This document shows positions 2,807 to 6,465 of a stretch of DNA of 6,465 nt, piece after piece (the first letter of the stretch is position 1; each line of letters opens with the position of its first letter). This stretch comes from a virus (Duplodnaviria; Heunggongvirae; Uroviricota; Caudoviricetes), in the IMG/VR virus record IMGVR_UViG_2693429557_000012; one strand, given 5' to 3'. A program made the position numbers and the translations under genes. The notes under the pieces are model-generated. The model ran no database searches. It was not told where the DNA came from and was given only the letters and a program-made list of their open reading frames with translations.

Positions 2807-3012
2807 TCCCCGCGGTGCTCAAAACACCTCGAAAGCGGTATCCACACCCGATAGCCATGTGGTTTTTTTGTGTCCAGAATTCTTGGTTTATGACCGGGTG
2901 TGCGGCTAATACAATACCAGCAATGGAAATACGCCCGCCGACTTTCGACGGTTTTGAGCGCCCGGTCACCCTCTCAAAAGGGGTAAATCAAAATATTCGA
3001 AAGGACATGTCT

Positions 3013-3576
3013 ATGAATCGCACGTCTATTGAAAAACTCCCGTCACTTACGCATAACCATCTTCCTGTCATGACAACAGAGCTGCTGGCTGATTTGTACG
3101 GAACAGAGCGCCAGCGTTTGACAAACAATTTCAATCGAAACAAAGAACGGTTTATAGAAGGTAAACATTTTTTCCTGATAGAAGGTGATGCGTTACGAGA
3201 GTTGAAGAACGAAAACTCTTTAAGAGTTTCTGTGAAAATTGCCCGTAACGTTCGCTCCCTCATCCTCTGGACAGAACGTGGCGCAGCCCGTCACGCCAAA
3301 ATGCTCGAAACCGATCAGGCGTGGGAAGTGTTCGAAAAACTGGAAGACTGTTATTTCAACCAGAAACAGCCACCAGCGGCACAAAACACATCTATCGAAA
3401 ATGATGGATGCGCATTACTGAGCCACTTCGATAAACACGGTCAGGTTGAGTTCACGGAAAAGGTACCCGCCGATGCGATGGTATGTACTCTGGAACGGTT
3501 TAAATTTTATCTGGAGCAACACGGGTGGATCGTTGCCCGTAAAGAGCAACTGGTGGAGCGGTTGATGCGGTTTTAA
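3013..3576 (+). CDS. ORF6N-like (KilA-N-related) phage protein, often annotated as antirepressor/regulatory protein
   Basis: LPVMTTELLADLYGTERQRLTNNFNRNKERFIEGKHFFLIEGDALRELK...LWTERGAARHAKMLETDQAWEVFEKL matches the ORF6N domain pattern as recalled. Start ATG 3013 has AAGGA 7 nt upstream. The ORF-track extension back to 2815 has no support and would overlap the promoter and leader hairpin. Confidence 0.65.
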   Translation: MNRTSIEKLPSLTHNHLPVMTTELLADLYGTERQRLTNNFNRNKERFIEGKHFFLIEGDALRELKNENSLRVSVKIARNVRSLILWTERGAARHAKMLETDQAWEVFEKLEDCYFNQKQPPAAQNTSIENDGCALLSHFDKHGQVEFTEKVPADAMVCTLERFKFYLEQHGWIVARKEQLVERLMRF

Positions 3577-3651
3577 AAATTTTTTCCGAAAACTTTACGA
3601 TCGTAAAAAGTTGAATATCCTGTTAAGAGTGGTTACTACGCCACACAGCTT

Positions 3652-3678
3652 AAACCCGCCGATGAGCGGGTTTTTTTA
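3652..3678 (+). terminator. Intrinsic terminator downstream of the ORF6N-like gene
   Basis: AAACCCGC/GCGGGTTT stem with 6 nt loop, followed by a run of seven T residues. Confidence 0.65.
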
Positions 3679-3726
3679 TACCTGAAAAACGGCACAGGAC
3701 GTTAAACGTGCTGGTGGTCAGATGAG

Positions 3727-3755
3727 TTTGCAGATGTGATGACATATGGTTATTA
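3727..3755 (+). promoter_or_regulatory. Candidate promoter for the tRNA array
   Basis: TTTGCA (3727-3732), 17 bp spacer, TTATTA (3750-3755), placing the start about 3 nt before tRNA-Ile. Confidence 0.3.
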
Positions 3756-3765
3756 TTCTGCCTCC

Positions 3766-3842
3766 GGCCCTTTAGCTCAGTTGGTCAGAGCGAGCGACTC
3801 ATAATCGCCAGGTCGCTGGTTCAAGTCCAGCAAGGGCCACCA
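3766..3842 (+). tRNA. ileZ: tRNA-Ile (anticodon CAU, ileX/ileZ-like, reads AUA)
   Basis: Hand-folded cloverleaf: acceptor GGCCCTT/AAGGGCC, anticodon loop CTCATAA, T arm GCTGG-TTCAAGT-CCAGC, encoded CCA. Near-identical to E. coli ileX as recalled. C4-G69 and C5-G68 fit Ile2 rather than Met identity. Confidence 0.85.
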
Positions 3843-3843
3843 A

Positions 3844-3920
3844 CCACCACTAGCTCATCCGGATAGAGCATCAACCTTCTAAGTTGACGGTGCGAGGTTC
3901 GAGTCCTCGGTGGTGGGCCA
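3844..3920 (+). tRNA. argN: tRNA-Arg (anticodon UCU, reads AGA)
   Basis: Cloverleaf with anticodon loop CTTCTAA, T arm CGAGG-TTCGAGT-CCTCG, acceptor CCACCAC/GTGGTGG with an unusual C1:G72 pair, encoded CCA. Begins 1 nt after the previous tRNA. Confidence 0.8.
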
Positions 3921-3922
3921 GC

Positions 3923-3998
<76 letters not shown>

Positions 3999-4001
3999 TA
4001 T

Positions 4002-4076
<75 letters not shown>

Positions 4077-4256
4077 GTCAGAGTCTTTCAGTCTGCGATG
4101 ATGGGAAATCCCGGAGTGACTGAAAGACGTTTAAGTTATGAATGATCGCCTTTTTTTGCAAAATTGCTGTGCAGAAATACTAACCTTCGGGCGTGCGATC
4201 ATTCATAAGCACTCTGCTTTTATTCCGATTAACTGTGGGTGGTTTGTTGGATAGAG

Positions 4257-4817
4257 TGTGAGGTGTACTGGCAATAGCGGACACTACCATTTGTTCTTTT
4301 TTTAAGCAGCCATCTGATGATATTTTTCCCTGAAGGCTGCCGGGGAGATATTCCCCAGACGAGAGTGACGACGCTGACGATTGTAGAAAATCTCAATGTA
4401 TTCCCGTATTACTGAGATGGCTTCATCCCGGTTATTAAAACGATAGTGGCTCAGGCTCTCATTTTTCAGCGTTCCCCAGAAGCTTTCCATCGGAGCGTTG
4501 TCGTAACAGTTACCTTTACGCGACATTGATGTTTTCAGACCAGACTGCTCCTGTATGACCCGGTAATCGTATGCGCAGTACTGTGAACCTCGATCAGAGT
4601 GGTGGATTAGCCCGGCAGGTGGGCGCTGGCTCCTGAGCGCCATAAACAGGGCTTTACCTGTCAGCTCTTTTGTCATGCGCTCTCCCATGGCGTAGCCGAC
4701 AATTTCGCACGTATAAACATCTTTGATGCCAGCGAGGTACAACCATCCCTCCTGTGTGGCAACATACGTCAGGTCCGCCACCCAGACCTGATTTGGTGCT
4801 GTAGGAGCGAACGTCAT
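4257..4817 (-). mobile_element. 5'-truncated IS3-family insertion sequence (3' ~560 bp only: C-terminal OrfB plus terminal inverted repeat)
   Basis: Encodes the DDE integrase core of an IS3-family OrfB (VADLTY, HHSDRGSQY, NAPMESFWGTLK). Beyond the stop at 4302, 4257-4290 (TGTGAGGTGTACTGGCAATAGCGGACAC) resembles IS3-group terminal repeats that begin with TG. OrfA, the OrfB N-terminus and the other end are absent. Confidence 0.75.
4302..4817 (-). pseudogene. IS3-family transposase OrfB, C-terminal catalytic fragment (N-terminally truncated)
   Basis: 171 aa ORF carrying the DDE triad but missing roughly the first 110 residues and the upstream orfA. The apparent ATG at 4815-4817 falls in the junction microhomology and is probably not a genuine start. 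Confidence 0.75.
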
Positions 4818-5224
4818 TTTTCCTGATAGAAGGTGATGCGTTACGAGAGTTGAAGAACGAAAACTCTTTAAGAGTTTCTGTGAAAATTGCCCGTAACGTT
4901 CGCTCCCTCATCCTCTGGACAGAACGTGGCGCAGCCCGTCACGCCAAAATGCTCGAAACCGATCAGGCGTGGGAAGTGTTCGAAAAACTGGAAGACTGTT
5001 ATTTCAACCAGAAACAGCCACCAGCGGCACAAAACACATCTATCGAAAATGATGGATGCGCATTACTGAGCCACTTCGATAAACACGGTCAGGTTGAGTT
5101 CACGGAAAAGGTACCCGCCGATGCGATGGTATGTACTCTGGAACGGTTTAAATTTTATCTGGAGCAACACGGGTGGATCGTTGCCCGTAAAGAGCAACTG
5201 GTGGAGCGGTTGATGCGGTTTTAA
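4817..5224 (+). pseudogene. 5'-truncated second copy of the ORF6N-like gene (C-terminal ~135 codons, no native start or promoter)
   Basis: In-frame identical copy of 3169-3576. The ORF track calls it from a TTG at 4850; its N-terminal ORF6N half is missing. Confidence 0.7.
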
Positions 5225-5299
5225 AAATTTTTTCCGAAAACTTTACGATCGTAAAAAGTTGAATATCCTGTTAAGAGTGGTTACTACGCCACACAGCTT

Positions 5300-5326
5300 A
5301 AACCCGCCGATGAGCGGGTTTTTTTA
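5300..5326 (+). terminator. Intrinsic terminator (repeat copy of 3652-3678)
   Basis: Identical duplicated sequence: AAACCCGC/GCGGGTTT stem plus seven T residues. Confidence 0.6.
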
Positions 5327-5413
5327 TACCTGAAAAACGGCACAGGACGTTAAACGTGCTGGTGGTCAGATGAGTTTGCAGATGTGATGACATATGGTTA
5401 TTATTCTGCCTCC

Positions 5414-5490
5414 GGCCCTTTAGCTCAGTTGGTCAGAGCGAGCGACTCATAATCGCCAGGTCGCTGGTTCAAGTCCAGCAAGGGCCACCA
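5414..5490 (+). tRNA. ileZ: tRNA-Ile (anticodon CAU), second copy
   Basis: Identical to 3766-3842 within the direct repeat. Confidence 0.85.
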
Positions 5491-5491
5491 A

Positions 5492-5568
5492 CCACCACTA
5501 GCTCATCCGGATAGAGCATCAACCTTCTAAGTTGACGGTGCGAGGTTCGAGTCCTCGGTGGTGGGCCA
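5492..5568 (+). tRNA. argN: tRNA-Arg (anticodon UCU), second copy
   Basis: Identical to 3844-3920 within the direct repeat. Confidence 0.8.
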
Positions 5569-5570
5569 GC

Positions 5571-5646
<76 letters not shown>

Positions 5647-5649
5647 TAT

Positions 5650-5724
<75 letters not shown>

Positions 5725-6337
5725 GCGAGATTTGAGACGAAGGTTGTTATTTGCACTGACACAATATTGTGTGGGAATGTCTGACTCCTTACCATCTCCT
5801 GTTCTGTGATGTTGTTTTGTTGCAGTTCCAGTGCTCTTTTTTCAGCACCAGAATGGTGCATTGTCGGTCAGGTTACGTAGTGAACCTCTGGCAGGGGACT
5901 GATAATGCATCATTCTGGTGTTGTAAATATCTCTTCGGACAACTTACAAAATATTCTAAGCAAACCCCGGGAACACACTCTTAACTGCCTTGGCTGGCGG
6001 TTTTTTGTACAGTGCTCGGTATGTGTGAGCTGGAAATCAGATTTTGCATGGACTGGAATCATGCTGTTATTTAGGGGCGAAGAACTGGCTTTTTCTTCCG
6101 CCTTCTCACCAGTAACGATTAGAAAAATAATGAAATGCCCCCCTCCGGGGAGGAGGACCGTAGAAAAAAGGACCCGCCAGCAAAAACATTGGGGATGAAC
6201 AGCTTTCGCTACTCAGATTGCTGGCGGGTAAAGTTCCTCATGAATTAAGAATGCTACGCGATCTTTTTTAATGGAAATGAAAATTATTGTCAATTAGTCG
6301 TGCGTGTTTTTTCATACAATATTGGTAAAGGTGATTC

Positions 6338-6373
6338 AGGCCATCAGAGTTTTGCTGATGGCCTTTTTTCTTT
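6338..6373 (+). terminator. Strong intrinsic terminator immediately upstream of the holin gene
   Basis: 10 bp stem AGGCCATCAG/CTGATGGCCT with 7 nt loop AGTTTTG, followed by TTTTTTCTTT. Confidence 0.7.
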
Positions 6374-6424
6374 CCGATAGCACAGGTCTGTCGGGGGGCG
6401 GGATATGTATCAGATGGAAAAAAT

Positions 6425-6465
6425 ATCAACAGGCATTGCCTACGGCACCTCCGCCGGCAGTGCCG
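6425..6465 (+). CDS. Holin (lambdoid S / DLP12 EssD-like), N-terminal 13 codons only; continues beyond the window
   Basis: MYQMEKISTGIAYGTSAGSA resembles the N-terminus MYQMEKITTGVSYTTSAVG of EssD-type holins as recalled. It sits where the lysis cassette is expected, after Q, the tRNAs and a terminator. Confidence 0.5.
   Translation, partial: MNRHCLRHLRRQC

Follow-up and report, generated by a model that had tools for sequence, protein, structure and literature searches.

The 3' external transcribed spacer (3'ETS) of the glyW-cysT-leuZ tRNA operon of Escherichia coli, 3'ETS-leuZ, is a small RNA (sRNA) sponge of about 53 nt that is bound by Hfq and has defined sRNA partners. Phage tRNA clusters have structured RNAs of their own: 'species 1' and 'species 2' of phage T4 (rnaD and rnaC) are small, structured and stable, and are co-transcribed with the T4 tRNA cluster and processed from it, and the large ornate prophage non-coding RNAs (ncRNAs) GOLLD and ROOL, of unknown function, are often found next to tRNA genes. 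Here we describe an element of 182 nt on the + strand of IMG/VR virus record IMGVR_UViG_2693429557_000012, a 6,465-nt stretch of Caudoviricetes DNA (hereafter the window), in which it occupies positions 4077-4258 between a prophage tRNA array and a fragment of the insertion sequence (IS) IS600. The element is non-coding and folds into three hairpins, stem-loops SL1, SL2 and SL3. It belongs to a well-supported structured RNA family that appears to be undescribed.

How does this element compare with the described systems? Like 3'ETS-leuZ, it lies between the last tRNA and an intrinsic terminator, and tRNA processing would set it free with a 3' end formed by the terminator hairpin; by position, it may work like the 3'ETS RNA of a tRNA operon. 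Unlike 3'ETS-leuZ, it measures about 180 nt plus the terminator, contains three conserved hairpins and is prophage-borne, its release is only predicted, and the copy in the window has no terminator. With rnaD and rnaC it shares the character of a structured RNA tied to a phage tRNA cluster, but T4 is virulent and of a different lineage, and its RNAs were observed experimentally, whereas the element is known from sequence. Like GOLLD and ROOL, it is carried by prophages, structured and linked to tRNA arrays; those RNAs, however, are several times larger and come from other bacterial phyla, and the element has no match in Rfam. We read the likeness to the T4 RNAs, GOLLD and ROOL as one of association and claim no family membership.

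A second set of described RNAs shares the location of the element rather than its link to tRNAs. STnc100/PasD, PasA/PasC, IsrK/IsrJ, StxS and lambda 6S RNA are short terminated transcripts that, like the element, are encoded between the antiterminator gene Q and the lysis genes of lambdoid prophages. The element nevertheless has no sequence or covariance-model similarity to them, and none of them has been reported to be a tRNA trailer. PasA and PasC run antisense to the late operon (PMC8550237, table S6), and PasA, PasC and PasD also flank holins in prophages of enteropathogenic E. coli (PMC8550237; bioRxiv 10.64898/2026.05.13.724894). The put RNAs, of about 70 nt and two stems, lie just downstream of early promoters (PMC9378689). 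Those of HK022 and HK639 are phage-encoded hairpin RNAs that act in cis on transcription, upstream of terminators, and the element is likewise hairpin-based and upstream of terminators. HK639 has a putL-like RNA as well as the element, and a covariance model of the element (R1) does not match the putL-like site.

Results

Structure of the element

An earlier inspection of the window that used only its letters (the sequence-only reading) had singled out a segment at 4078-4256 with two long perfect inverted repeats. The segment is unique in the window, lying outside a 908-bp direct repeat, but its true limits are 4077, the first base past the CCA of tRNA-Gly, and 4258, the last base before IS600 (T4259). 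Both repeats are present with altered dimensions. Stem 1 pairs GTCTTTCAGTC (4083-4093) with GACTGAAAGAC (4118-4128) over 11 perfect bp and encloses a loop of 24 nt; its 3' arm had been placed one base too far to the right, at 4119-4129, which gave a loop of 25 nt. Stem 2, reported as 12 bp, is a perfect stem of 14 bp between TTATGAATGATCGC (4136-4149) and GCGATCATTCATAA (4195-4208) with a loop of 45 nt, and the 3' arm originally noted for it corresponds to 4195-4206.

Could such repeats be expected by chance? We counted perfect inverted repeats (arms of 11 bp or more, loops of 3-60 nt) in the window and in dinucleotide shuffles. The window contains three, two of them within the element, against a mean of 0.07 in 300 shuffles; when the segment itself was shuffled, one such repeat was seen in 3 of 3000 cases and two in none. 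The two inverted repeats are therefore far beyond chance. The + strand of the element folds at -61.4 kcal/mol (z = -4.1), a value matched by 0 of 200 shuffles, and the fold adds a third hairpin (4209-4258) and an 8-bp apical helix inside stem 2, both of which the sequence-only reading had missed. That reading was right in holding that the stems are not terminators. No T-run follows stem 1 or stem 2 (SL1 is followed by GUUUAAGUU, SL2 by GCACUC), and a terminator scan of 4077-4258 returned no site; with no U-run directly 3' of either hairpin, SL1 and SL2 are ruled out as intrinsic (Rho-independent) terminators. A promoter scan found no promoter within the element.

The element opens with a single-stranded linker, GUCAGA at 4077-4082 on the + strand (GUUAAAG or GUUUAAG in aligned relatives), which connects the 3' end of tRNA-Gly to SL1 and is a candidate site of endonucleolytic processing. 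SL1 (4083-4128, + strand) consists of the 11-bp basal stem, an internal loop resembling a kink-turn (K-turn), and an apical stem UGGG/CCCG with a variable tetraloop. Two pairs of the basal stem show compensatory changes (U-A to C-G; C-G to U-A). In the internal loop, the pair C4096=G4116 is followed by the bulge G4097 A4098 U4099, by G4100.A4115, A4101.G4114 and U4102.G4113, and then by GGG/CCC, so that its sequence pattern suggests a K-turn-like loop with candidate tandem G.A/A.G pairs. Across 51 sequences, the loop does not vary at A4098-U4102 or A4115 and hardly varies at G4097 and G4114; one clade departs from the K-turn pattern at a single position, with U for G4114. The flanks of the loop were paired differently by two RNAalifold runs. 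A likeness of SL1 to the anticodon/T-arm part of tRNA-Gly, seen in a MAFFT alignment, was dropped, as tRNA models have no match there.

SL2 (4136-4208, + strand) combines the 14-bp basal stem with the 8-bp apical helix, formed by 4153-4160 and 4170-4177, which closes the conserved loop AAAUUGCUG, and with a CC-UUCG-GG mini-hairpin at 4184-4191. Its basal stem shows compensatory changes from A-U to U-A and from U-A to G-C, and one position of the apical helix is seen as U-A, U-G or C-G. SL3 (4209-4258, + strand) has the lower stem GCACUCUG/UAGAGUG(C) and a strongly conserved G/U-rich 3' strand, GGGUGGUUUGUUGG, with which a variable 5' strand is often G-U paired. Double changes occur in 5 of the 8 lower-stem pairs, and the lower stem exists in at least three versions (CACUCU/AGAGUG, CACUCC/GGAGUG and CAUCUC/GAGGUG). 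In the window, the closing C of its first pair is replaced by the first base of IS600.

The three hairpins are separable modules. In some prophages tRNA-Gly leads straight into SL2-SL3, in others SL1 comes after a different tRNA, and in still others SL2 or SL2-SL3 follows a small open reading frame (ORF). Salmonella phage Fels-1 contains an isolated SL2 as well as a decayed full copy.

Homologues and covariation

Of 5,426 complete E. coli genomes, 517-536 contain the element over 179-182 bases at 95-100% identity, in every case on the chromosome. Phages PhiR47_1, phi467, vB_EcoS-689R5 and vB_EcoM-606R7 also carry it, as does HK639 at about 75% identity, and copies at 72-80% identity occur in HK639 and many prophages of Enterobacteriaceae. 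Exact-word scans with words from the SL2 loop and SL3 recovered about 190 further loci in genomes and viral contigs, among them loci of Shigella flexneri, Enterobacter hormaechei, Citrobacter sedlakii, Yokenella regensburgei and Phytobacter ursingii. Conservation of the family extends over lambdoid prophages of E. coli, Shigella, Salmonella, Enterobacter, Citrobacter, Yokenella and Phytobacter.

Is it the sequence or the pairing that is kept? We aligned 24 and then 51 distinct full-length homologues of 72-100% identity and folded the alignments with RNAalifold. Both sets gave the same three hairpins, with 57 pairs, 10-11 of which carry compensatory double changes. Standard pairs account for 97.1% of cells, as compared to 39-48% when the partners are slid by 1-3 columns, and none of 500 column shuffles attains the observed covariation score or the observed count of doubly changed cells. 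Covariation across the 51 homologues bears out the small structured RNA that was among the possibilities named by the sequence-only reading. A protein-binding operator, named beside it, is disfavoured: G-U/U-G cells number 429 and A-C/C-A cells 21, and since G-U is tolerated and A-C is not, the conserved structure is that of the + strand RNA, not of a DNA operator. One clade (L153, L163 and L190) has a different SL2 interior; read by eye from the alignment, with no count of pairs, its basal arms UUUUGAAAAC... and ...GGUUUUCAAAA can still pair.

The proposed tRNA transcription unit and its surroundings

In the window, the element directly follows an array of four prophage tRNAs on the + strand (3766-4076; Met/Ile2 (CAT), Arg (TCT), Thr (TGT) and Gly (TCC)), called by ARAGORN and supported by Rfam tRNA matches. 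A promoter scan placed a sigma70-type promoter-like site on the + strand at 3728-3756 (-35 TTGCAG at 3728-3733, a 17-nt spacer, -10 TATTAT at 3751-3756), ending 9 nt ahead of the first tRNA. The pattern TTG[CA]NN, 16-18 nt, TANNNT, located 5-12 nt before the first tRNA, is present in 44 of 45 unique contexts, as opposed to 0.9% of shuffles. The hexamers are kept (TTGCAA/G/T; TATTAT/TATCAT), the spacer sequences vary, and so do the genes upstream of the promoter, which include Q, ant, a methyltransferase and terminators.

In 61 of 90 unique upstream contexts, the distance from the 3' end of a + strand tRNA to the SL3 core is 170 nt or less; this spacing is about 160 nt where SL1 is present and about 104 nt where it is not. 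Past SL3, 57 of 84 unique contexts have a hairpin resembling a terminator, complete with a T-run, inside the next 110 nt. Intact members have one or two intrinsic terminators after the element and then the lysis cassette, and the annotation of HK639 places terminators just upstream of its tRNA and just downstream of the element, which itself is left unannotated in that record. The complete trailers of HK639 and PhiR47_1, SL1-SL2-SL3 plus the terminator hairpin, fold with z = -3.5 and -5.3, respectively. In intact relatives, then, the element holds the position of a 3'ETS, between the last tRNA and a terminator and behind the operon promoter. The copy in the window has the corresponding 5' boundary, at 4077 after the CCA, and has lost its terminator to IS600.

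What follows the element in intact relatives is a holin gene. In CFSAN029787 and PhiR47_1, the same tRNA array is succeeded by the element, a stretch of about 110 bases with a short terminator (CCCGC-UUUU-GCGGG-U5) and a ribosome-binding site, a P21-type class II holin, an endolysin and Rz. Across the family, the first downstream gene encodes a holin, and these holins fall into at least five different Pfam families; the element hence goes with the tRNA cassette and not with one lysis gene. This speaks against the suggestion of the sequence-only reading that the segment is the control region of the gene downstream. A recurrent ORF-like stretch of 52 codons (MANLIDCRNKFGVIYFCGES...) starts 64 nt past SL3 in 14 loci; in HK639, its start falls under the 5' part of a match to STnc100.

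In HK639 and Fels-1, the leader from Q to the holin contains an isrJ-like match just below the threshold of that family, at least one tRNA, SL1-3, and one to three copies of STnc100 (RF02076) above its gathering threshold. This late leader is a string of terminated sRNA-like modules. The STnc100 copies, each ended by a terminator, lie at 3754-3959 in the HK639 locus (L001) and at 1273-1486, 1687-1809 and 2810-3028 in that of Fels-1 (L204).

Truncation of the window copy by IS600

Immediately 3' of SL3, comparison with independent IS600 copies identifies the 3'-terminal 559 bp of IS600, encoding the C-terminal part of its transposase, at 4259-4817 on the - strand. The IS600 terminus TGAGGTGTACTGG... 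abuts SL3 at 4259. At its inner end (4817), the fragment is joined to an internal position of an ant-like gene, so that IS600 is 5'-truncated. Is the element itself part of the insertion sequence? Identity between the window and an intact relative stops exactly after ...GGATAGAGTG, before a C, at the point where IS600 begins in the window, and independent IS600 copies share window sequence only from TGAGGTGTACTGG (4259) inward. As the sequence-only reading had supposed, the segment does not belong to the insertion sequence: it is found without IS600 in about 517 E. coli genomes, and IS600 ends at 4259. The boundary and the IS600-free occurrences rule out the element as a terminal part of IS600.

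The insertion of IS600, exactly at the 3' foot of SL3, eliminated the terminator, the remainder of the leader and the holin and lysis genes. With terminator and lysis leader gone, the window copy is a truncated relic, and transcription from the tRNA promoter of the window would now run antisense into IS600. The sequence-only reading had proposed the 5' region of a cargo gene lost to the IS event; the cut is real, but what was lost is the leader of the lysis cassette and the holin. The SL3/IS600 junction is absent from all 5,426 complete E. coli genomes in our collection. Three IMG/VR contigs (L050, L077 and L121) have the element truncated in the same way after base 182, and L050 also has the downstream arrangement of the window. 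The flanks of independent IS600 copies (L202, L203) loosely resemble positions 4240-4258 (TTTGTTGGATAGAGTG, GTTTATGGATACAGG, TTTTGTTGCCATCAGTT), and this similarity of sequence hints at a target preference of IS600.

Comparison with known RNAs and binding sites

Could the element be a divergent member of a known RNA family? In Rfam 15, window positions 4077-4258 have no overlapping match at E <= 1 (STnc100, AgvB, AsxR, isrK, isrJ, C4, Y-RNA-like, GOLLD and ROOL included). Rfam likewise assigns no family to the element in an intact relative (L003), HK639 or Fels-1; the only sub-threshold match, to istR in HK639, overlaps SL3 and the terminator and scores 26 bits where the gathering score is 45 (E = 0.15). 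In blastn comparisons, PasA, PasA-long, PasC and PasD2 of E2348/69, taken from the coordinates in PMC8550237, table S6, share only chance words of 9-14 nt with the window, the intact spacer and HK639. An identity with the HK022-type put antiterminator RNA was rejected: model R1 has no match in HK022, in HK639 it matches only 44516-44699 and not the annotated putL-like RNA at 34187-34312, and the position of the element, in the late region after a tRNA array, is unlike that of a put site downstream of an early promoter. A Fur or iron box, of which the sequence-only reading had seen a weak resemblance in one arm, can also be dismissed, the best match to the 19-bp consensus GATAATGATAATCATTATC being 11/19 on either strand.

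Searches for partners of the element were negative within their scope. No site complementary to the G/U-rich strand of SL3 occurs in the window or in 14 kb of intact prophage, other than its own complement, and no complementarity to the local holin leader was found. An alternative pairing of terminator and antiterminator, as in a riboswitch, was sought by eye, and none is common to E. coli-type and HK639-type copies. No description of the family was found in Rfam 15 or in the searchable literature (full-text queries with conserved words of the element, on both strands, as RNA and DNA), and literature on prophage holin- or tRNA-associated sRNAs and on 3'ETS led only to the Pas and STnc100 papers.

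Other features of the window

The window represents the late-region side of a lambdoid prophage with many insertion sequences. Positions 1-40 are the terminus of a multicopy IS3-family element, presumably IS2, judging by its inverted terminal repeat; 3,611 of 5,426 E. coli genomes contain this sequence, which in the window borders the region upstream of a helicase gene. Genes for a DnaB-like helicase, RusA and the Q antiterminator come next. Directly 3' of Q and upstream of an ant-like ORF lies a cluster of RNAs at 2560-2975, with Rfam matches above the gathering score to c4-a1b1 (2560-2612), isrK (2573-2649), C4 antisense RNA (2675-2758) and sRNA-Xcc1 (2892-2975). Together with ant, these RNAs are a P1 immI-type (c4/ant) module within a lambdoid late region. 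CFSAN029787 has the same module at another location.

The 3' part of ant and the tRNA array form a perfect direct repeat of 908 bp (3169-4076 = 4817-5724). The second copy, on the + strand at 4817-5724 and 100% identical to 3169-4076, brackets the element and the IS600 fragment together with the first, and contains a second promoter-like site (5376-5404, + strand) and a second four-tRNA array (5414-5724, + strand; ARAGORN). Downstream of this second array lies a different leader of 690 nt (in the 5725-6465 region), followed by a P21-type holin that starts at 6415. The leader contains a 31-nt inverted repeat of 84% complementarity (5839-5927) and two terminator-like dyads (6172-6229 and about 6340-6370). 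In its complete form it is rare: nine E. coli genomes have it, and these are strains resembling enteroinvasive E. coli in which the copies of the element are 100% identical to that in the window.

The second tRNA of the array (3844-3920; 5492-5568) has a scaffold of acceptor and T-arm that is constant among relatives (L002, L142, L179 and others) and an anticodon arm that differs. Its anticodon is Arg-TCT in the window and most commonly Lys-TTT, and there is a form of 73-74 nt with the loop AAATGTT, TAATGTT, TTATGTT or GAATGTT, which ARAGORN calls Phe-AAA, Leu-TAA, a TTA 'stop' anticodon, Phe-GAA or none assignable. From these sequences, it looks like anticodon-arm swapping in a phage tRNA.

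Discussion

What is the function of a conserved three-hairpin RNA between phage tRNAs and a holin? The reading that we favour, and to which we give about even chances, is that of a structured 3' trailer of an autonomous tRNA transcription unit, which is likely a stable RNA and would insulate the holin gene. The conserved promoter of its own and the terminator that usually precedes it indicate that promoter, tRNAs, SL1-3 and terminator constitute a self-contained unit. Such a unit would be a 'moron' inside the late region that can be transcribed in the lysogen, with SL1-3 as its 3' external transcribed spacer. Processing of tRNA-Gly would then release SL1-3 and the terminator as an RNA of about 210-220 nt, which, closed by SL1 at its 5' end and by the terminator hairpin at its 3' end, would likely be stable. 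Trailer and terminator would keep transcription of the tRNA unit that is not modified by Q out of the holin gene, and Q-antiterminated late transcription would read through the trailer. The conservation of the K-turn-like loop of SL1, the SL2 loop and the G/U-rich strand of SL3 suggests a further, specific interaction with protein or RNA.

Several observations weigh against this interpretation. The element lacks a preceding tRNA in 29 of 90 unique contexts (e.g. in L160 and Fels-1, where SL2 or SL2-SL3 follows a small ORF), so that it is not strictly a tRNA trailer. It is always located between Q and the lysis genes, which a role in the late leader would explain equally well, and the terminator of E. 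coli-type copies is weak, with a stem of 3-5 bp. The K-turn in SL1 is a candidate, assigned from its sequence pattern. As to the covariation, retrieval of homologues by exact words from the SL2 loop and SL3 inflates the conservation of those words, and the clades are few, hence many compensatory cells derive from few events and are not independent.

The main rival explanation, possible in our view though doubtful, is a cis-acting 5' leader of the lysis mRNA. Once the tRNAs have been excised from the Q-antiterminated transcript, SL1 would cap the new 5' end against RNase E, and SL2 and SL3 would serve as RNase III/E processing or stabilising signals that set the level of holin mRNA and the timing of lysis. 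Such a leader would account for the constant placement between Q and the lysis cassette even in the absence of tRNAs, for the start of SL1 just 6 nt past the tRNA 3' end, and for the shape of SL2, since long hairpins with internal loops broadly resemble phage RNase III sites. It is difficult to reconcile with the unrelated holin families, at least five in number, and the equally unrelated intervening leaders of 60-950 nt that follow the element, with the one to four terminators, and in HK639 and Fels-1 other sRNA modules too, that come before the holin, and with the lack of complementarity to the local holin leader; moreover, a tRNA unit with a conserved promoter and terminators around it looks like an independent one. 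Alternatively, the element could be a trans-acting RNA or one that binds a ligand or protein, as an sRNA or sponge, a scaffold for a ribonucleoprotein or a riboswitch-like sensor, its place behind the tRNAs being merely convenient for expression. We consider this unlikely, even though invariant non-helical bases (in the SL1 loop, AAAUUGCUG and GGGUGGUUUGUUGG) stand beside covarying stems, modules separate and shuffle like genes, and neighbouring modules match STnc100, with isrK upstream in the window and an isrJ-like match upstream in HK639, both Hfq-binding families. No L7Ae-type K-turn protein is known in E. coli, and no alternative pairing with the terminator, judged by eye, is conserved between E. 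coli-type and HK639-type copies. In favour of a role in trans, the holin-adjacent prophage sRNAs PasA, PasC and PasD regulate host genes (PMC8550237; bioRxiv 10.64898/2026.05.13.724894).

Two further explanations do not involve a structured RNA. An element acting at the level of DNA, either an operator (e.g. for Fur) or a recombination 'boundary' between phage modules, would fit the perfect dyads and their position at the junction of tRNA and lysis cassettes, but is highly improbable: the substitutions are strand-asymmetric in a manner unexpected for a DNA palindrome, the arm sequences change while pairing is kept, and the match to the Fur box is poor. Least credible of all is a small protein encoded by the 38-codon ORF at 4138-4254. 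This ORF starts with ATG and some relatives have ORFs in a similar frame, yet 1-nt indels fall inside it among 97%-identical relatives, PhiR47_1-type copies stop after 14 codons, start codons differ, the two main clades diverge in frame past codon 17, and the substitutions are those that compensate pairs.

The preferred reading, a 3' trailer, leaves room for a more ambitious one. SL1-3 and the terminator may constitute an undescribed K-turn-containing ncRNA family that is expressed in the lysogen from the promoter of the tRNA 'moron', released by tRNA processing and active in trans, a proposal that we make only tentatively. Such an RNA might regulate or sponge host or phage RNAs, serve as a decoy against RNA-targeting defences, or scaffold proteins.

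For the window itself, our results mean that the segment is to be annotated as an IS600-truncated leader relic in a rearranged prophage, and neither as an operator nor as a gene. More generally, several regulatory RNAs that rewire the host are known to come from prophage late regions (StxS, AgvB, Pas, STnc100), and the family described here adds one more structured RNA to these regions, present in about 10% of the complete E. coli genomes and with relatives in other Enterobacteriaceae. If the RNA accumulates in lysogens, phages would have their own version of the tRNA-trailer sRNAs, and the association of phage tRNA arrays with structured ncRNAs would gain a tractable enterobacterial example. 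If it acts in trans, roughly one E. coli genome in ten would harbor a new functional prophage RNA.

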